A stretch of DNA of 64,000 nucleotides, from assembly GCA_023229865.1 (NCBI GenBank), contig JALNYL010000003.1, positions 22,109 through 86,108 of the forward strand, read 5' to 3'. Numbering within the stretch: the stretch's first letter is position 1; each line of letters starts with the position of its first letter. A program made the translations under genes and the position numbers. Below, in pieces: positions 16,859 through 56,452 of this stretch. The notes beneath the pieces are model-generated. The model had not been told where the DNA came from. It did not search any database and worked only from the letters and a program-made list of their open reading frames with translations. This DNA is from Minisyncoccota bacterium (GTDB lineage Bacteria > Patescibacteriota > Minisyncoccia > Phycocordibacterales > UBA1550).

Positions 16859-16879
16859 TGGCTGTGCTATACTAAAAAA

Positions 16880-24447: not shown

Positions 24448-25045
24448 CATATTGAAGGTGCTGAAAAAGCTCTATCCGCACCCAGCATGCGCACTTCACT
24501 ACACGAAGCCATTTGAGCTTCTCGTGGCAGTCATTTTGTCTGCGCAATGCACCGATAAAAAAGTAAATGAGGTTACGAAAGAACTTTTCAAGAAATACAG
24601 AACCCTCGACGACTATGCGAGCGCGAAATCCGCTACATTTGAAAAAGATATTCATGCGACAGGATTTTATCGCGCGAAGACAAAAAATATTCTTGCTGCG
24701 GCAAAAGTTTTGAAATATGATTTTGATGGGAAAATTCCAAAAACAATGGGGGAGATGATCACGATCCCCGGTGTGGGGAGAAAGACTGCCAACGTCGTTC
24801 TTGGTGAGCTCTATGGCACAGCCGAGGGAATCGCCGTCGACACGCACGTCATTCGTCTCTCAAAACTTTTTGGACTCACTACGCACACCGACGCAAAAAA
24901 GATAGAAGGGGATTTGATGCAGATAGTCCCCAAAAAAGATTGGGTGAGTTTCTCACACATGCTCATCCTCTATGGACGCGAGCATTGCACCGCGCGCTGC
25001 AAGCATACTGATTGCCCTCTCAAGAAATACGTAAACATGCTATAA
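24419..25045 (+). CDS. nth: endonuclease III
   Basis: ELLVAVILSAQCTDKKVN, HhH-GPD (IPGVGRKTANVVL), catalytic Lys/Asp; C-terminal Cys cluster is C-x3-C-x4-C (three Cys); overlaps upstream gene by 29 nt. Confidence 0.88.
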   Translation: MKKENTNLPNILKVLKKLYPHPACALHYTKPFELLVAVILSAQCTDKKVNEVTKELFKKYRTLDDYASAKSATFEKDIHATGFYRAKTKNILAAAKVLKYDFDGKIPKTMGEMITIPGVGRKTANVVLGELYGTAEGIAVDTHVIRLSKLFGLTTHTDAKKIEGDLMQIVPKKDWVSFSHMLILYGREHCTARCKHTDCPLKKYVNML

Positions 25046-25057
25046 TACAAGGACTTT

Positions 25058-44375: not shown

Positions 44376-46046
44376 CTATATTCCAACCTTCGCATCGAGC
44401 TCCACGTAAAACGTCGAACCATGCCCCTCCCCCTTTGACTCGCCCCAGATGCGACCTTCGTGCTTTTTGATAACCTCCTTGGCTACATAAAGCCCAAGCC
44501 CTGTACCCTCGGTGTACACCTTGCTTACCCCCTCCGCGCGACTAAATTTCTTAAAAATCTTTTCTTTGGTTTCTTCACTCATCCCGATGCCCGTATCAGA
44601 GACACTGAAAAGAATATTCTTTTTGTCAGGGCTCTTTGAGAGAAGGAGTGATACCTCCCCCTTAGGGGTATACTTGATCGCATTATCAATAAGATTTGAG
44701 ACCACCTGGCGAAGCTTACCCTCATCCCCAACCGTAACAAAAGAAACCCCCTGCTCTATCCCCTCGTCGATAATGACATCAAAAATCAAATCCTGATGAA
44801 GCGCTGTCGGCCTCATTTCTTCAGCCAAATCAAGCACAAGCTTTTTTGCATCAACATCCCTAAATACATATTTCATATTCCCACTCTCGATATTTGAAAT
44901 ATTAAGAAAGTCAGAGATCATCGCAAGAAGACGTCCGCTTGAATCAAATATTTTTTCTACTGCCTCACGAGCAGAAGCAGAAAGTTCACCAAGCGATCCC
45001 TCGAGAAGCATGGAAGAGTACCCGCGCACCACCGTGAGTGGGTCGCGCAAATGATGCGAAGTGACCGAAAGAAAATCTGATTTTTTCTTATCGAGAGTTT
45101 TGAGGCGATGTGAAATCAAATTAATATCAAAGAGAAGGCGCGTGATTTTCTCCTTGGACTCTATCTCGCGCTTTACACTTCCGTCCAAAAACGAGGCAGA
45201 GACGACCACAAGGACAGTGATAGCAGTCTTGAGCAAGAGATCTGCAAACGAACTCGCGAAAAATATTTCTGCAATGAGGATAAGGACGATTCCCGAGATA
45301 AACAGCTCGGTCATAATCACTTTTGTGTTCCAAAAATTGTACTTGGTAATAATAAATGCAGAAGCAAACATAAGCAGAGCAACGCTCACATGCCCGCCCC
45401 AAAACAAATCGTGGCTACCTCCAAAAAATATCGGAGAGAGAAGCGAGGTCAGAATAGCAAGCACGTACGCCGCCGCCGTAGCAAGAGCAAGCTCGCGCAT
45501 CGCCACCTTAAAAATCCCCGCGCTCTCGCGATATTTTTTCACAATCACAATGAGCGCCACAATCAAAAAGGCAATGATATACAACGCGTAAACCCAAAAC
45601 AATTCCCCGAAAATTATTTTGTGCGATAAATTAGAAGAAATAGGGGCACTCGTTACAATAACTTGAGGAGAGGTAAGGAGAACCCATGTGATAAGCAAGT
45701 ATGGGGCAAAGAATAAAGCGATGAAAACTGGGTGAATCTTTTTTTGCTCAAATGAAAATACATACAGGAACAGAAAAAGAAAGACGGGAACGGCGGCGGC
45801 GGAAGCATAAAGCGCCGTTACCCCCATCTGTGCAAGGGGGGTCCCGATACTTCCCTCAAAAAATGCGTACGAAGCTCCCCATACCACCGTCATTACTGCA
45901 AGTGCAAGAAAAAAAATACTGCTACGTTTCTTGGTGTCTTGCCAAAAAATAATCCACGCAAGAAGAAGCGAGAAGAGGCTCGCGCCCACGACGATCCAGC
46001 CGTCGACAGAGACATTATTGATGAGTTCAAAGAAAGAGACGGGCAT
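44376..46046 (-). CDS. sensor histidine kinase with multi-TM N-terminal sensor domain
   Basis: ~8 TM helices; HisKA H-box VTSHHLRDPLT; HATPase N, G1 (SDTGIGM), G2 boxes. Confidence 0.88.
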   Translation of the reverse strand: MPVSFFELINNVSVDGWIVVGASLFSLLLAWIIFWQDTKKRSSIFFLALAVMTVVWGASYAFFEGSIGTPLAQMGVTALYASAAAVPVFLFLFLYVFSFEQKKIHPVFIALFFAPYLLITWVLLTSPQVIVTSAPISSNLSHKIIFGELFWVYALYIIAFLIVALIVIVKKYRESAGIFKVAMRELALATAAAYVLAILTSLLSPIFFGGSHDLFWGGHVSVALLMFASAFIITKYNFWNTKVIMTELFISGIVLILIAEIFFASSFADLLLKTAITVLVVVSASFLDGSVKREIESKEKITRLLFDINLISHRLKTLDKKKSDFLSVTSHHLRDPLTVVRGYSSMLLEGSLGELSASAREAVEKIFDSSGRLLAMISDFLNISNIESGNMKYVFRDVDAKKLVLDLAEEMRPTALHQDLIFDVIIDEGIEQGVSFVTVGDEGKLRQVVSNLIDNAIKYTPKGEVSLLLSKSPDKKNILFSVSDTGIGMSEETKEKIFKKFSRAEGVSKVYTEGTGLGLYVAKEVIKKHEGRIWGESKGEGHGSTFYVELDAKVGI

Positions 46047-46078
46047 AATGAAAGTATACTCTACGGAGATTAAAACCT

Positions 46079-47791
46079 CTAGACGGCAGGGGTGCTTGCC
46101 TTGTGGTTTTGAGGAATCTCAACCACGACCGTGACACCACTATTTACTCCAGCTGACTCAAGATAAAGCATCCCGTGATGAGCCTCGATGATTTCGCGTG
46201 CAATGTAAAGCCCGAGGCCAGGAGTCCCCGCACTTGATCTCTCAGAGTCAATACCTTGATCCATCCCAGAATGACGCACTCCCTCATGCTGAGACTGTTT
46301 AGAGAATGCTTCGATTTGAGAAGAGGTCATCCCCGCGCCCGTATCAGAAACAATGAGACGTATCTTGTGCCCAACAGTGTCATTCATAATAAACACATGA
46401 ACAGAACCATGCGGAGGCGTATACTTGAGCGCATTTTCAAGAATGTGGCGCACTACCTGTTTAAATTTTTTCTGATCAATGGCAATGAAAAAATTGTTGG
46501 GGACCTGCGCATCGAAAACGAAATCAATTTTTGCCGCCTGAATACGCGACTTTGCTTCTGCAAAAATACTCTGAACAAAATCTTTAAAATTTGTTGTTTC
46601 AAAATTAAGCGCCCCTCTCCCCTGCTCGATGCGCGAGATGGTAAGCAAATCTTCTACGAGCTCTACTAATTTCATGTTTGAATCATAAAGCTTTTCTACT
46701 GCGCCGCGAGTGACAGGGACAAGCGTGCCAAACGTCCCTTCAAGCAACATCGAAGTGTATCCTTTTATTATCGTAAGGGGTGTGCGAAGCTGATGTGAAG
46801 CGATAGATACGAATTCTGTCTTTTGCTCTTCCATTTTGCGCAAACGTTCATTTGCGACCTCCATCTCCGCCACGAGACCTTCAATCTTTTCGCGGTCCTG
46901 GATGTCTTTGTAGATGCCACGCATCAAAACAAAGCTGAATTCAATCATAAACAAGAACACGAGGATATTGAGGACGAGGTCGATGCTTCTACTTGAAGTA
47001 AAAATATTGAGGAACAAAAAGAGATTGAGGAGAAGGACTGCCATCTCGACAAGGATGAGCTTGATATCAAAAAGTTGATGCTTAACAATCGCGTAGGAAA
47101 TAATGAGCGGGTAGAGGAACACCGTCATGTTCATGTATGGATAAATATCAATCCCATATACTGGCAAAAAGTTGAACGCGCCACCAGCGAAACTCACGCC
47201 CATCCCAAAGAAGAAAAATTTGATTTTATCTTTAATAAATCTATCTTTGCTTTCTTTGAATCCCTCCCATAGAAGGTAATGACTGTACGCCGTCAGAACA
47301 AAAAACATTGTCGTATATAATGGGTAAAAAAGACCCGGAGGAGAGTCGAAGTAAAACTCCCCAAACACGAAGCGCATATTGTCGATGAAAAGTCCGTCAG
47401 TAAAGTCCGCGATCAAGAGAAGACCAGCGAGTACATAAAAAATCACGAGAACTTTTGTTTTTTCTTTCCCTAAAAATTCATATACAAAGTGCAAAAAAAC
47501 TACAGGAATCAAGATTGCTCCAATGTGCCCAATCTTCCACCACAGAGCCGCAACGTCGGGTGTTAAGGCCCCGCCAACGAAGTAGATACCGAGCCCAAAG
47601 AGAAATACGCAAAAACAAAAAAAGGACCAGAGACGATGAAGCTTATTCTTGCCAATGAACAACATGAGCCCCGCCATCAAACCACTCGTGACAGCAATAA
47701 GAAGTCCTGACAAACTATAAATAGTCATGACATATATTATAAGCGAGATATCGTTTATGTCATAGTATTTTTCAGCCAAAAAGAAAAACAA
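46079..47791 (-). CDS. sensor histidine kinase (paralog of preceding)
   Basis: ~8 TM; IASHQLRTPLT H-box; SDTGAGM G-box. Confidence 0.88.
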   Translation of the reverse strand: MFFFLAEKYYDINDISLIIYVMTIYSLSGLLIAVTSGLMAGLMLFIGKNKLHRLWSFFCFCVFLFGLGIYFVGGALTPDVAALWWKIGHIGAILIPVVFLHFVYEFLGKEKTKVLVIFYVLAGLLLIADFTDGLFIDNMRFVFGEFYFDSPPGLFYPLYTTMFFVLTAYSHYLLWEGFKESKDRFIKDKIKFFFFGMGVSFAGGAFNFLPVYGIDIYPYMNMTVFLYPLIISYAIVKHQLFDIKLILVEMAVLLLNLFLFLNIFTSSRSIDLVLNILVFLFMIEFSFVLMRGIYKDIQDREKIEGLVAEMEVANERLRKMEEQKTEFVSIASHQLRTPLTIIKGYTSMLLEGTFGTLVPVTRGAVEKLYDSNMKLVELVEDLLTISRIEQGRGALNFETTNFKDFVQSIFAEAKSRIQAAKIDFVFDAQVPNNFFIAIDQKKFKQVVRHILENALKYTPPHGSVHVFIMNDTVGHKIRLIVSDTGAGMTSSQIEAFSKQSQHEGVRHSGMDQGIDSERSSAGTPGLGLYIAREIIEAHHGMLYLESAGVNSGVTVVVEIPQNHKASTPAV

Positions 47792-50168: not shown

Positions 50169-50249
50169 GTGTTATTGAGTATACCAGAAAGGGCGCAAAG
50201 GACGGAGTCCTTTGCGCCCTTTCACTTTTTACTTTTTACTTTTCACTTA

Positions 50250-52849: not shown

Positions 52850-52994
52850 ATTGGATTCTTATCTTACCATATACCCAAAAAATCAAAAAATTGCTTGGCC
52901 ATAACCCGTATTTCACGCCCTATTTTCCGTAGTTCCCTAGTATATACAAAATTTTAGAGATGTAAATTTCAAAAGAAAGGAATCTGATTCTATC

Positions 52995-53423
52995 TTACTT
53001 AGTTTTTAAATACGTTTTTTCTATTTTTAAAATAGATCCAACAATCATTATCGTATAAAATATTCCAAGAACTAGAAACAAGAAATCCTGACCCATACCT
53101 AGATACCCACCTCCCCCACCCATATATTCAAAAAAGAATGTTGTGGCGATAATAATAACAACCCATTTGCGAGCAAAATTCCACCATGCACGAAAAACTT
53201 GTTCTTTCATCCAGTAGGTAACAAGGGAAAGAAACAACAGAGATAGAGACAAGAATCCCACCAGTTGACCAAGTGATTCAGAGAAAATACTCCCATCTCT
53301 ACAATATTCTGTACCACTTGACCAGACTGCAATATTTTTACATAACCCAAAAGCAACAGGATAGCTGGACACGAAAGAATATACAAAGGCTCCAAGGGCA
53401 GTAAGTAGTACGATTTTTTTCAT
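52995..53423 (-). CDS. membrane protein, family member 1 of 4 (true start MKK; upstream MCNGGIMLG is promoter read-through)
   Basis: signal-like N-terminus + 3 TM, G5 run; identical 5' cassette to the three upstream genes. Confidence 0.6.
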   Translation of the reverse strand: MKKIVLLTALGAFVYSFVSSYPVAFGLCKNIAVWSSGTEYCRDGSIFSESLGQLVGFLSLSLLFLSLVTYWMKEQVFRAWWNFARKWVVIIIATTFFFEYMGGGGGYLGMGQDFLFLVLGIFYTIMIVGSILKIEKTYLKTK

Positions 53424-53460
53424 TCCTAACATTATCCCACCATTACACATTAAAAGAAAG
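53424..53460 (-). promoter_or_regulatory. conserved leaderless promoter cassette (extended -10 TGgGATAAT, 7 nt before ATG), copy 1
   Basis: 37-nt block identical or near-identical in four copies. Confidence 0.55.
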
Positions 53461-53492
53461 AGCGGATTGTTTTCGACAATCCACTCTTTCTT
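53457..53492 (-). terminator. rho-independent terminator after family member 2
   Basis: 10-bp stem (one G-U) gagtggattg/caatccgctc on transcript, flanked by A/T runs. Confidence 0.55.
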
Positions 53493-53551
53493 AATTTTGT
53501 CTTTACCAATAGAGTTTGAAAATCAAAGGTACCTGACCGCTTTTCCAAGAT

Positions 53552-53959
53552 TTATATTGCATTTCGACCATGACAAGGTTTCAGATTTTCACAAGTAATG
53601 ACCGCCCCACAAGTAGGGTCAAAATCGCTTATATAATTTGTTGGGATGCTTATTATATAAGCAAGGTAGAGCAGATATTTCCCCAAAACAAACACCACGA
53701 TACCTAATATTATTAATACAAACATCTTAGCCACTCTAACCTCATGCCACAGAATTTGATTCAAACGTTTCTTTTTATACACAAATAGCGACACCAGCCC
53801 CACAGCGAAGAGAGCAAGGGGGGTATAACTTTTTTCAACAGCACACGACTTCAGGTCTATAGTTTTCTCAAGTAGTGGATCCCTGTGATCTAAGAAGGGT
53901 GCACTCATCGCAACCAACGGAAGCAGAAGGAACAAGCCTACTAATAATATTTTCTTCAT
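53552..53959 (-). CDS. membrane protein, family member 2 of 4
   Basis: MKKILLVGLFLLLPLVAMSAP signal-like start; 2-3 TM; C-terminal Cys pair. Confidence 0.6.
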   Translation of the reverse strand: MKKILLVGLFLLLPLVAMSAPFLDHRDPLLEKTIDLKSCAVEKSYTPLALFAVGLVSLFVYKKKRLNQILWHEVRVAKMFVLIILGIVVFVLGKYLLYLAYIISIPTNYISDFDPTCGAVITCENLKPCHGRNAI

Positions 53960-53996
53960 TCCTAATATTATCCCACCATTACACATTAAAAGAAAG
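53960..53996 (-). promoter_or_regulatory. conserved leaderless promoter cassette, copy 2
   Basis: same 37-nt block. Confidence 0.55.
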
Positions 53997-54008
53997 GATC
54001 CTGTCTCC

Positions 54009-54779
54009 CTATCTCACGGCGGTATGATCATCATGATAATGCAGTATTCTGTACCCCGACAAGGGAACGAACAAAGGAGATGCTGTTGCTATTAGTGTGC
54101 TTAGCGCAAGTACTATAATTGCAATAATTAACCTCCAACTAATTATGCTTCTGTGGGTTAATCGCCTGAAAGCCAACACGGCAGACCAAAGGAATAAGAA
54201 CAAAAACTGTATGGTTGAGGCACCGACAGATACTAATAGTGCTACAAAGTCACCAGTATTCAAAATTATCGCCGTCAGGGGCACCACATAAATATTTGAA
54301 AGGAAAAATACGGCACTTGCGAAAGATCCGACATACAAAAAGAAACGCGACATCCAACCAGCCTGCTCCTTGTACAATATACTCAAGACCCCCAGTAATA
54401 CATAAGCATTAAAAACAAAGGACACGGTGACAAATCCAAGGAGTAGGTAATCTTTTAAAATATAATCCCAAAAGAAAAGTGCCGAGGGAATTGAGCAAAG
54501 CAAAAGAGTAAACCCCGCTAACGAAGACTGAATCAATGATTTCTCGGTAAATTTAATTTTAGTTCTTTTATCCACAAATAATAGAACTGCTCCGACAAAA
54601 AGAATAAGTGTCGGAAGAAGTGTAGTGTTAAAGAGAAGATAAACACCCATATTACTAATAAATAACTCTGAACCTGGATGCCCGTACATTGGAATATCCC
54701 CACTATACAAAATAGGAGCTGAGTAAGAGATCAGTGGGAATACAAAAATTGAAGTTAATAGCAATAACAACTTTTTCAT
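54009..54779 (-). CDS. polytopic membrane protein (~8 TM), family member 3 of 4
   Basis: MKKLLLLLTSIFVFPLISYSAP start; highly hydrophobic. Confidence 0.6.
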   Translation of the reverse strand: MKKLLLLLTSIFVFPLISYSAPILYSGDIPMYGHPGSELFISNMGVYLLFNTTLLPTLILFVGAVLLFVDKRTKIKFTEKSLIQSSLAGFTLLLCSIPSALFFWDYILKDYLLLGFVTVSFVFNAYVLLGVLSILYKEQAGWMSRFFLYVGSFASAVFFLSNIYVVPLTAIILNTGDFVALLVSVGASTIQFLFLFLWSAVLAFRRLTHRSIISWRLIIAIIVLALSTLIATASPLFVPLSGYRILHYHDDHTAVR

Positions 54780-54816
54780 TCCTAATATTATCCCACCATT
54801 GCACATTAAAAGAAAG
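54780..54816 (-). promoter_or_regulatory. conserved leaderless promoter cassette, copy 3
   Basis: same 37-nt block (one substitution). Confidence 0.55.
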
Positions 54817-54848
54817 AGCGGATTATCGAAAACAATCCGCTCTTTCGT
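54813..54848 (-). terminator. rho-independent terminator after family member 4
   Basis: perfect 10-bp stem agagcggatt/aatccgctct, 9-nt loop. Confidence 0.6.
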
Positions 54849-54898
54849 AATTTTGTCTCTATCAATAGAGTTTGAAAATAAAAGGTACCTGACCGCTT

Positions 54899-55294
54899 TT
54901 ACTTCTGCAGTGTAATGTATTTTGAAATAATAAGGATGATAGATGTGACGAAAAATAGACCTGAAAGAAGCATCGAGATTGGCTCGATAAACGAAATATC
55001 TCTATTGCTTTTTTCTAAAACAACAAGAATGCTAACAATCAGGAAATAAGCCGGGACAGCAAGAAGAACAAAACGAGTCCAGAAATGAAAGATTTCACCT
55101 CTTAAGGGATATGTAACTAACGAAATAAAAAGCAGAGGAATAAAAATAAAGAAGTAAGAATTTATATTATCTAATGCTTTCCACAGACCCCAGCAGTGCC
55201 CTCCATCCACGCAAAAATTATAAGCCTGTGGTGAATAAATTAAGATTCCAACAGCAAGTCCAATAATACTAAACAATAGAACAGTTTTTTTCAT
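54899..55294 (-). CDS. membrane protein, family member 4 of 4 (closest to member 1)
   Basis: MKKTVLLFSIIGLAVGILIYSP start; SLVTYP... segment homologous to member 1. Confidence 0.6.
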   Translation of the reverse strand: MKKTVLLFSIIGLAVGILIYSPQAYNFCVDGGHCWGLWKALDNINSYFFIFIPLLFISLVTYPLRGEIFHFWTRFVLLAVPAYFLIVSILVVLEKSNRDISFIEPISMLLSGLFFVTSIILIISKYITLQK

Positions 55295-55331
55295 TCCTAA
55301 TATTATCCCACCATTACACATTAAAAGAAAG
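55295..55331 (-). promoter_or_regulatory. conserved leaderless promoter cassette, copy 4
   Basis: same 37-nt block. Confidence 0.55.
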
Positions 55332-55351
55332 GATTCTGACCCCGTTTACAT

Positions 55352-56248
55352 TTATTTTTGAGTACTAATTAGATGGTCTCCCAAACCATCCTCTCTATCA
55401 TTTAAAGCACGTTTAAGCTCGGGGCGTAACCAATCTGGGGTGTCCGCAGGAAGATACCCCAGATTAAAAATTCGATTCAACGATGCGCTTTGACATTTAG
55501 GGGCTCTACCCCTGCCATCAATTGTCAAAAACGAAAAATTAATTTCAAAAAAATTCACAAGACATTCAGTGTCCATTTGATAATCAAATTTTGTATCAAT
55601 TTTTCCCCCATCATCGTGCGTAAGATACTCCATGGTCGCTAAATACTTTTTAGTAGCATTTAGCCCAACAAATGACTTTGTGTCTTTGTTGATGTAATCG
55701 GCACGCATTAGCTTAATTTCCTCGTTCAGTAAAGCTGTTTGCTGGATGTAATACAAGAAAAATCTATACTGGATTAACCCAAAAGTATTTTGAAGTGTTT
55801 TTCTTGCATCATCACTTATACTGTCTTCAATATAAGATTCAGGAAGAGAGGAGATGCCTTCCCCTGCCATTAAATTCATTCTCTCGTTTGAATTTGAAAT
55901 AAATATATCTTGATTCGTAATAAGATTTTTATATACCGCTTCAATTTGCGCACGCTCATTTATCCCTCTTTGGTGGGCTGGCACCCAAACAGCAACACCG
56001 ACGGAAGCAAGCACAGTAAGCAGCGCAACAACAATAGACCTAAAACCTACTTTTTTTGAAATATCTGCTTGCTTTTCTGAGTTCTTTATCTGTTCCTGAT
56101 TCAACAAAAACTGCTTTTGACTTTCTAGGGTATCAATTTCAGCAGAAATTTTTTCTTTATCAAACAAGATAAACTGCCCAAGAAAACCAGCGTTTTCAGC
56201 TAGTAATTTTTTCTTTTCCTGTATTTGTTCTTGGATATCATTGATTTC
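55352..56248 (-). CDS. hypothetical membrane-anchored protein (start at MEINDIQ; longer ORF would include the upstream terminator)
   Basis: coiled-coil N-terminus, one TM (IVVALLTVLASVGVAVWV), AT-rich. Confidence 0.5.
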   Translation of the reverse strand, partial: EINDIQEQIQEKKKLLAENAGFLGQFILFDKEKISAEIDTLESQKQFLLNQEQIKNSEKQADISKKVGFRSIVVALLTVLASVGVAVWVPAHQRGINERAQIEAVYKNLITNQDIFISNSNERMNLMAGEGISSLPESYIEDSISDDARKTLQNTFGLIQYRFFLYYIQQTALLNEEIKLMRADYINKDTKSFVGLNATKKYLATMEYLTHDDGGKIDTKFDYQMDTECLVNFFEINFSFLTIDGRGRAPKCQSASLNRIFNLGYLPADTPDWLRPELKRALNDREDGLGDHLISTQK

Positions 56249-56276
56249 CATAATTATTAAATTCAATGATAACACA

Positions 56277-56298
56277 AAACCACCCAAATGGGTGGTTT
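56277..56298 (-). terminator. rho-independent terminator downstream of rpsI
   Basis: stem aaaccaccc/gggtggttt, loop aaat, T/A runs both sides. Confidence 0.65.
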
Positions 56299-56452
56299 TG
56301 TGAAATGATTTCAAACGTTCAAATATTGGGATGTTACGCTCTAAGGTTTATCTCGAGATGAATACGAGGCACGGAAAAAGCGCCCGCGGAAGGTGTACAT
56401 ATAGTACTCCGACCAAGGGCGCTTTTTTTCGTAACGAAGTAGTCGCTCGAGA

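Follow-up and report, generated by a model that had tools for sequence, protein, structure and literature searches.

How did four neighbouring membrane-protein genes come to share almost the same upstream sequence and start codon when their coding regions have so little in common? The question is raised by a locus in the genome of a Minisyncoccota bacterium (listed at NCBI as Candidatus Pacebacteria bacterium), where the genes, here called M1 to M4 in order of plus-strand coordinate and all encoded on the minus strand, lie one behind the other between rpsI and grpE. The whole stretch of DNA analysed, 64 kb of contig JALNYL010000003.1, is referred to below as the window. Most members of the candidate phyla radiation (CPR), or Patescibacteria, have never been cultured; their genomes are tiny, they presumably live attached to host cells, and little is known about how their envelope proteins are expressed and varied. 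A first-pass annotation of the locus had placed an identical 37-nt cassette before each of the four genes. The cassette is real and occurs in four copies; these are near-identical rather than identical, with 0–2 pairwise differences over the 38 nt preceding the ATG. The reading favoured here, at a probability of roughly 0.6, is that the locus is an accessory island at the rpsI|grpE junction in which a portable promoter/start module, uniform within the genome, drives exchangeable gene bodies.

The predicted promoter and start module

When both strands of the window were searched with up to three mismatches allowed, a 42-nt block, CTTTCTTTTAATGTGTAATGGTGGGATAATATTAGGAATGAA, was found in exactly four copies, all on the minus strand; as a control for chance, none of 100 shuffled sequences gave a match. 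The copies are located as follows.

53419-53460, minus strand: block copy before M1, one mismatch (A to G just after the -10)
53955-53996, minus strand: block copy before M2, no mismatch
54775-54816, minus strand: block copy before M3, one mismatch (T to C in the spacer)
55290-55331, minus strand: block copy before M4, no mismatch

Each copy terminates at the ATG, followed by AAR AAR, of a membrane-protein gene, and nucleotide identity among the copies falls to background right behind ATGAARAAR. The extended -10 sequence that had been described 7 nt ahead of the start codon, TGgGATAAT, is indeed present in all four copies, with 7 nt between GATAAT and ATG. It matches TATAAT at five of six positions, carries TG at -15/-14 and recurs in both copies of the module in the closest relative found, a genome designated L027. 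This is the arrangement of an extended -10 promoter of the sigma-70 type, in which TG stands one base ahead of a TATAAT-like hexamer and a -35 can be dispensed with. The spacer of the module reads AATGTGTAATGG and TTCTTT, in the -35 region, is a poor match; the module promoter was absent from the output of a simple -35/-10 scan. At its 5′ end the 37-nt sequence begins with CTTTCTTTT, which also serves as the T-tail of the terminator or junction motif before it. Written as a search pattern, the module is GTAATGGTGGGATAATAT.

The block forms part of longer junctions that alternate short-long-short-long along the island. The short junction (~59 nt) stands before M4 and M2 in copies that are 93% identical, including a 44-nt exact run, and the long junction (129 nt) stands before M3 and M1 in copies that are 90% identical, each with a 16-17-bp hairpin and a T-tract, and ~13% different outside the core. 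Behind every stop codon in the island there is a motif of the form (G)TCAGrwwCC-TTTnTTTT, and one residual, promoter-less example of it remains at the end of the array.

55295..55343, minus strand: junction module copy 1, short; GTCAGAATCC-TTTCTTTT, spacer AATGTGTAATGG, TGgGATAAT, ATTAGGA, then the ATG of M4
54780..54898, minus strand: junction module copy 2, long; GTCAGGTACC-TTTTATTTT, 16-bp hairpin, promoter core with the T to C change
53960..54008, minus strand: junction module copy 3, short; 44-nt run exactly as in copy 1
53424..53551, minus strand: junction module copy 4, long; hairpin terminator, promoter core with the A to G change after the -10
52971..52988, minus strand: residual junction motif ATCAGATTCC-TTTCTTTT after M1, promoter-less, abutting the conserved grpE upstream region
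53456-53492, minus strand: terminator hairpin after M2, within the 129-nt repeat
54812-54846, minus strand: terminator hairpin after M4, within the 129-nt repeat

The two hairpins were located by a terminator scan, inside the 90%-identical repeat, in agreement with the earlier description of conserved terminators after M2 and M4; the fold of the long junction before M3 is more stable than that of shuffled sequences (z = -3.2). Their stems are near-identical, and their loops are mutually reverse-complementary (TTTTCGATAA versus TCGAAAACAA), which implies that one copy underwent hairpin-loop inversion. A further motif, GTCAGGTACCYTT, consists of a small palindrome with a T-rich tail and is confined, within the window, to the array (53525-53537 and 54881-54893). 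The same motif recurs between genes in accessory islands of relatives (L036 at 6654, 7452 and 9526; L028; L041) and may be a clade-specific terminator or junction signal.

The arrangement is unlikely to be an artefact of assembly, since an independent Logan assembly of SRR18595301 reproduces positions 53970-55319, comprising M4, the intergenic region and M3, at 100% identity. Its contig L001 breaks exactly within the 44-nt exact repeats, as expected of a k=31 graph.

An in-frame upstream ATG inside the block produces the prefix MCNGGI(I/M)LG in the list of open reading frames (ORFs), and the first-pass annotation had considered this prefix artefactual. Three observations bear that out. The NCBI annotation of the same metagenome-assembled genome (MAG; tags M0P64_01790-01805) starts the genes at MKK, giving proteins of 142, 135, 256 and 131 aa; homologues elsewhere of the family to which M1 and M4 belong begin (M/T)KKIVL; and the upstream ATG is not kept in L027, which has AGT instead. 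The upstream ATG was rejected as the true start on these grounds. Gene calling is affected by such sequences, the MCNGG... prefixes being typical mis-calls, one of which has entered a public protein collection: the 265-aa form of M3 is present there and the exact 256-aa form was not found. A profile search with the MCNGG prefix included retrieved no other prefix-bearing ORF, which argues weakly against further copies in assemblies that hold this organism.

The distance between the -10 and the start codon suggests that these genes may be transcribed without a leader. The AGGA of the module abuts the ATG with 0-nt spacing; it cannot serve as a Shine-Dalgarno sequence for that start and was rejected as such. 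Outside the array, TGn(T/G)AnnnT ends 4-12 nt ahead of the start codon in 14 of the 56 window genes, as against 10 of 710 internal start-like codons used as a control (an enrichment of ~18-fold), and the distance from -10 to start in such genes falls mainly within 6-11 nt and is commonest at 7 and 9. A spaced GGAGG is found before a minority of window genes only. Since a quarter of the other genes share the geometry, near-leaderless starts would appear to be the organism's usual style. Examples include the following.

16860-16879, plus strand: gene start with leaderless-type geometry
25038-25057, plus strand: gene start with leaderless-type geometry
50169-50188, minus strand: gene start with leaderless-type geometry
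52850-52869, minus strand: gene start with leaderless-type geometry, grpE
63335-63354, minus strand: gene start with leaderless-type geometry

Ribosomal-protein genes internal to operons have neither the -10 geometry nor a spaced GGAGG. The promoter and leaderless reading of the module is well supported by these sequence statistics, and each of the four genes is probably transcribed alone, as a leaderless or 1-nt-leader mRNA, at equal strength and under equal control; promoter activity and a transcription start at the ATG are what we infer from the motif and its spacing.

Leaderless mRNAs are common in the Actinobacteria and Deinococcus-Thermus, and the transcription start sites of Mycobacterium tuberculosis were reportedly studied by Cortes et al. 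in 2013. The genes described here resemble leaderless genes of other bacteria in having a -10 about 6-8 nt before the start, no Shine-Dalgarno sequence and an ATG start codon; they differ in belonging to the Patescibacteria and in having a start site that is predicted. A search of one literature library found no paper on leaderless genes or tandem promoters in CPR bacteria or Parcubacteria. The locus also points to widespread leaderless-type starts in a Paceibacteria genome, and the module is a candidate for the minimal promoter of genetic tools yet to be built for that group.

Gene bodies and their relatives

The proteins behind the four modules are as follows.

52995..53423, minus strand: M1, 142 aa, typical member of a family with four transmembrane (TM) helices, motif FRAWWNFARKW...GGGG...GMGQDF
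53552..53959, minus strand: M2, 135 aa, copy of an internal two-TM/Cys-rich segment of a giant surface protein, behind a hydrophobic N-terminus
54009..54779, minus strand: M3, 256 aa, ~7-8 hydrophobic segments, orphan
54899..55294, minus strand: M4, 131 aa, divergent member of the 4-TM Patescibacteria family

M1 and M4 had been called recognisably homologous, and they are: the two share 22-24% identity (pairwise E = 2e-7) and match a common family, for which there is no Pfam model. A profile search recovered this family as 789 clusters at 50% identity (E <= 1e-3), and its matches in the genome collection come almost entirely from Patescibacteria MAGs (Paceibacterota, Lloydbacteria, Minisyncoccia and bins labelled Saccharibacteria). 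The family core, SL(V/I)TY...F(R/H)xWxxF, is matched by M1 and M4 over their full length, and not by M2 or M3. M1 is 59% identical in amino acids to genes of the relative L002 and 70% identical to a gene of L009, a sister MAG, while M4 is 76% identical to the homologue P0004 and 33% identical to P0009 (E = 3e-11). M2 has another source. Its residues 34-133 resemble residues 898-1000 of a 1601-aa Paceibacterota protein of L002 (E = 5e-17), and its residues 46-135 resemble residues 967-1055 of a 1658-aa ORF in the window itself, at 34140-39116 (E = 1e-11). Database-wide searches with M2 and M3 returned only the queries themselves (for M3, among 5.8 billion proteins), and M3 has no match in Pfam, NCBIfam, PHROGs or the Protein Data Bank (PDB). 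Pairwise comparison of M1 to M4 revealed no relatedness, beyond a hydrophobic N-terminus, for any pair other than M1 and M4. These comparisons do not unite the four genes in one family: they yield a homologous pair (M1 and M4), a fragment of a giant protein (M2) and an orphan (M3).

Searches of the five island proteins, that is, M1 to M4 and the first island gene described below, against Pfam, NCBIfam and PHROGs gave nothing credible, and a Pfam search with 11 members of the 4-TM family was likewise empty. An AlphaFold2 (AF2) model of M1 (predicted local distance difference test score, pLDDT, 78.8) has four helices, the first at residues 2-20, with a beta-hairpin loop separating helix 1 from helix 2. 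A conserved Cys pair lies in or beside the helix 1-2 loop in the family, and M1 and M4 are 4-TM proteins whose small outer loop is probably disulfide-bonded. The best match to the model in the PDB had E = 1.7 (Foldseek), and a search of the PDB by sequence found nothing. The first-pass annotation had the gene bodies diverge behind a signal-peptide-like segment. On the model this segment is more likely an uncleaved first TM helix; the Pro that follows S-A would probably block signal peptidase.

The N-terminal Lys-Lys of M1 and M4 (codons 2-3) is encoded by an A7 run (53415-53423 and 55286-55294, respectively). The closest homologues of the two genes (L009:5990-6015 and L107:440-460) are frameshifted exactly in this run, which could reflect low-coverage sequencing error or slippage-prone tracts.

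The same locus was compared in relatives, from which 80 loci were fetched with GrpE as probe. In most of them rplM-rpsI-grpE-dnaK are contiguous, and across about 60 relatives the rpsI-grpE gap is mostly 60-230 nt; in the window it measures 3.6 kb (52850-56452). Most of it is occupied by the following feature.

52976..56449, minus strand: AT-rich lineage-specific island between rpsI and the grpE promoter region, ~3.5 kb

Several other lineages hold 0.7-6.8 kb of unrelated, independently acquired genes at the same place, and such repeated, unrelated insertions identify the junction between rpsI and grpE, close to highly expressed operons, as a hot spot for insertion. In L036 and L037 it is occupied by Fic-like, DNA-methyltransferase-like and other defence-type genes, these labels being read from translations.

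The most informative comparison is with L027, a 784-kb contig whose GrpE, DnaK and RplM are 90%, 96% and 95% identical to those of the window. Its island, of 2.8 kb, contains a different first gene (309 aa), a 121-aa member of the 4-TM family (L027-A) and a 253-aa double member (L027-B), and both family genes are preceded by a module reading CCTTTC(T/A)TTTAGTTCGTAATGGTGGGATAATAT... A search for further copies of the cassette was thereby answered, with two found in the closest relative at the same locus. The flanks of the two islands are collinear and 86-88% identical in nucleotides (blastn; window positions 57281-56450 and 52975-52000), whereas inside the islands the modules alone match, at 82-86% over 43-57 nt. 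Over the 38 nt before the ATG the copies differ at four positions within L027 and at 4-8 between the two genomes. The spacer bases are lineage-specific, AATGTG in the four window copies and AGTTCG in both L027 copies. Since these bases are not needed by a promoter, their uniformity within each genome and difference between genomes point to concerted evolution or to spread after the split.

The genes behind the modules tell a different story. Genes at the same position are not orthologous: M4 and L027-A are 23% identical in amino acids, M3 has no similarity to L027-B, and the first island gene of the window has none to the 309-aa gene. In contrast, the body of M1 is 80% identical in nucleotides to a gene of L009, from the A-run after the ATG to a few nucleotides before the stop, and the body of M4 is 80% identical to a gene of L107, from about codon 7 to the stop. 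Both homologues sit in tandem arrays made of a giant-protein C-terminal fragment and a small 4-TM gene; their native N-termini are longer (MIKKILNWFTTKK... and MEKINELMTKK..., respectively). For L027-B the join with the module lies 15 nt ahead of a native start that reads MNNILNWFT. The join points thus differ among M1, M4 and L027-B, which means that the module was fused to different bodies at different junction points. Elsewhere (L002, L004/L005, L009 and L107) the 4-TM genes follow giant surface-protein genes, and those of L009, L107 and L027-B have the longer N-terminus M..ILNWFT..KK; those described here start at MKK and stand as two copies at rpsI|grpE behind a promoter different from that of their relatives at giant-protein loci. 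Copy number and content are variable among relatives, with four module copies in the window against two in L027, non-orthologous bodies, and most relatives lacking the island.

Giant surface-protein genes (window 32864-39116, minus strand, 1658 aa; L009:50-6420; L002:199-6450; L107) are followed by small 4-TM genes that alternate with partial copies of the giant protein's C-terminus. In the window an 84-aa copy of the C-terminus lies at 33351-33602 and is 81% identical; in relatives there are 2-4 tandem units with fragments of 155-302 aa. The arrangement resembles a reservoir of alternative C-terminal cassettes or an array that duplicates easily.

Origin of the island and competing explanations

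The anatomy of the island, the pattern of conservation and the source of its gene bodies are established by the comparisons above, and a sequence of events can be proposed from them. The module consists of the junction/terminator motif GTCAGrwwCC-TTTnTTTT, enlarged by a strong hairpin in every second copy, together with the extended -10 TGgGATAAT (with no good -35) and the ATG 7 nt downstream. It would be ancestral at the locus, the closest relative having two copies, and after the lineages split it would have multiplied and been homogenised by recent duplication and/or gene conversion; from the short-long-short-long layout, the most recent step seems to have been duplication of a two-unit block. 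The ORFs behind it would have been replaced, with small 4-TM genes and a giant-protein fragment taken from the arrays that lie next to giant surface-protein genes. Expansion and replacement may have been driven by recombination between the repeated junctions, since junctions of 44-129 nt could be substrates for unequal crossing-over and conversion. The original fusions may have relied on microhomology at the A-run and at AGGAAT/AGAATT. The first-pass annotation had envisaged a variable protein family that exchanges or expands at a conserved 5′ block. A module that persists while genes turn over supports the main lines of this; membership of one family is not borne out.

Several considerations weigh against this reconstruction. 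The module is known from two genomes only, and the 18-nt core was found solely in the window's lineage and L027 among 1.14 Mb of fetched relatives; within this genome the search for the module covered the 64-kb window. Exact-match scans of GTDB representative genomes (with a 29-mer), JGI metagenomes (24-mer) and IMG/VR (18-nt core) were empty, the GTDB and JGI patterns being too strict in that they included TTAGGAATGAA, which differs in L027. No donor gene with the module was seen for the putative homologous exchange between shared junctions, and at least some of the fusions must have been illegitimate. The promoter and its start site are predicted from the sequence, the first base of the -10 is G rather than T, and the -35 is poor. 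Moreover, the ~13% difference of the long junctions outside their core means that the uniformity of the core could partly be a product of promoter selection.

One alternative is an old tandem duplication of gene and promoter, with fast in-place divergence of the coding regions, a promoter held by purifying selection, and neither conversion nor replacement. M1 and M4 are true paralogues, the alternating junctions resemble a duplicated two-gene block, and with long junctions so different outside the core the duplication need not be very recent; in L002, tandem paralogues keep a 23-nt upstream block at 91% with bodies at 72%. However, M2 and M3 are unrelated to M1 and M4, M2 being clearly a giant-protein fragment, and duplication of a block predicts by position that M4 should resemble M2 and M3 should resemble M1, which is not seen. 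M1 and M4 have relatives of 80% nucleotide identity at other loci and in other organisms, while the syntenic L027 gene is at 23% in amino acids, and the spacer and discriminator bases that a promoter could dispense with are the same in all four copies and different in L027. In-place divergence is unlikely on this evidence. Alternatively, the conserved block could be an RNA cis-regulatory leader (an attenuator, a thermosensor or a translational repressor hairpin) on transcripts started upstream. To judge by the sequence, the start codon could be masked by pairing between the pyrimidine tract CUUUCUUUU and AGGAAUGAAAAA; the locus adjoins the heat-shock operon grpE-dnaK-dnaJ, and the long junctions give sub-threshold matches to L20_leader (24-26 bits against a gathering threshold of 58.7). 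A leader is nonetheless improbable: an Rfam scan at E <= 1 placed no family at threshold and gave only sub-threshold chance matches, the short junctions are not folded more stably than shuffled sequence (z = +0.9 and +1.5), and the stability of the long ones comes from their terminator alone. The strong terminator directly before two of the copies would end upstream transcripts first, and the distance from -10 to ATG fits the genome-wide promoter geometry.

The closest analogy to the locus is with the variable surface lipoprotein loci of mycoplasmas, namely vsp of M. bovis, vpma of M. agalactiae, vsa of M. pulmonis and vlp of M. hyorhinis, in which a conserved 5′ untranslated region and N-terminus are carried by otherwise unrelated surface genes, next to a recombinase or under a homopolymer-controlled promoter (PMC2268961). 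Both kinds of locus occur in small genomes as tandem clusters of membrane or surface genes whose content varies between close relatives, and in both a 5′ non-coding block is common to all genes. A phase- or antigenic-variation locus of this kind, with the 5′ blocks as recombinase targets or slippage promoters, would account for a membrane-gene cluster with divergent bodies behind a shared 5′ block, like that reported for vsp/vpma (PMC2268961), and the A7 run in two of the four genes, with the frameshifts of their L009 and L107 homologues, would suit slippage. But the mycoplasma genes have a conserved lipoprotein signal with a lipobox (e.g., AAKC), and their conserved block covers the signal peptide, whereas conservation here stops after MKK, at codon 2-3; the first Cys contexts are FGLC (M1), YNFC (M4) and KSC (M2), none of them a lipobox, and M3 has no Cys near its N-terminus. 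Inversion loci have an adjacent tyrosine recombinase, genes in both orientations and a single promoter that is moved; here each gene has its own -10 and all lie on one strand, with no recombinase among the neighbours scanned within ~9 kb and no inverted copy in the window. Slippage promoters of the vlp type have a long homopolymer between -35 and -10, and the longest run near the spacer here is T4, in CTTTCTTTT. Moreover, the members are not one protein family, promoter and reading frame are intact in all four genes, and the frameshifted homologues come from low-coverage or short assemblies (L009 at ~4x by contig name) and may be sequencing errors. With no recombinase, lipobox, inverted copy or long spacer homopolymer to indicate active switching in this scope, the locus is not a switching locus of the mycoplasma type, and that explanation is slightly more improbable than a leader.

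Finally, same-direction small ORFs lying between conserved repeats, in part with hairpins, could conceivably be a mobile element or an integron-like cassette system, or else an assembly chimaera of alternative alleles. In other relatives the hot spot does hold defence or mobile-type genes, and the GTCAGGTACC motif recurs in such islands. An integron array, however, has promoterless cassettes separated by attC, together with intI and attI, whereas each junction here carries a promoter-like element, and the inverted repeat, present in two of the four junctions, is a terminator-type hairpin with a T-tail. No integrase or transposase was found among the neighbours scanned within ~9 kb, neither terminal inverted repeats nor target duplications were evident, and the 18-mer core is absent from IMG/VR. 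A chimaera is contradicted by the linkage of M4 and M3 at 100% identity in the independent assembly and by the independent presence of the tandem layout in L027; the longest exact repeat, of 44 nt, should be resolvable with longer k-mers. Explanations of this group are very improbable. On the evidence given, an integron, a miniature inverted-repeat transposable element (MITE), a recombinase switch, an RNA leader and an assembly chimaera were all rejected.

The accessory island with a portable module also invites comparison with the hop/hom genes of Helicobacter and the opa genes of Neisseria, outer-membrane or surface families kept uniform at their ends by gene conversion. As in those families, a short end segment is more alike within the genome than between orthologues, and such ends can anchor recombination. 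The difference is that the homogenised segment here is non-coding, comprising a promoter and start codon, and that the bodies are unrelated proteins, not alleles of one family. Conserved expression modules on divergent surface genes, and their concerted evolution, are thus a known theme, to which a CPR genome and a leaderless design make a moderate addition. The locus illustrates cleanly how, in nature, a short and portable promoter/start module is put to repeated use on unrelated genes; it is a tidy, testable case that neither overturns current understanding nor introduces a new principle.

A bolder and rather doubtful extension is that the modules act as recombination anchors of a “landing pad” at rpsI|grpE, by which Paceibacteria populations swap, add and delete ORFs from the giant-protein gene pool. 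If this were true, newcomer ORFs would be expressed at once as leaderless mRNAs, and the cell envelope of episymbiotic CPR bacteria would be varied by cassette exchange in which no recombinase takes part.

Composition and neighbouring genes

The island is markedly AT-rich beside grpE-dnaK-dnaJ and the ribosomal-protein genes, as had been noticed earlier: the block has a GC content of 0.34-0.41 and the flanks one of 0.44-0.52, and at third codon positions (GC3) the respective values are 0.29-0.39 and 0.41-0.51. Membrane-protein composition does not explain the low GC3 of the island, since the window's 7-TM histidine kinases have normal GC3.

Three further features lie between rpsI and the first module.

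55352..56251, minus strand: first island gene, “up320”, probably 299 aa from MEINDIQ, with one TM helix and without the promoter module
56370-56425, minus strand: first hairpin terminator after rpsI
56273-56302, minus strand: second hairpin terminator after rpsI, inside the listed 320-aa ORF

Because the listed TTG start of up320 reads through the second hairpin, the gene probably begins at the ATG at 56251. The protein has no match in Pfam, NCBIfam or PHROGs, and no relatives were found for it.

A Pfam scan of neighbours within ~9 kb identified TrpRS/TyrRS, two histidine kinases, an epimerase, DnaJ, L17 and RpoA, with two ORFs giving no Pfam match; DnaK, GrpE and the adjacent ribosomal-protein genes were assigned by homology. 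The two histidine kinases (44376-47791, minus strand) are adjacent paralogues with an N-terminal 7TM domain (HisKA_7TM) and lie downstream of dnaJ.

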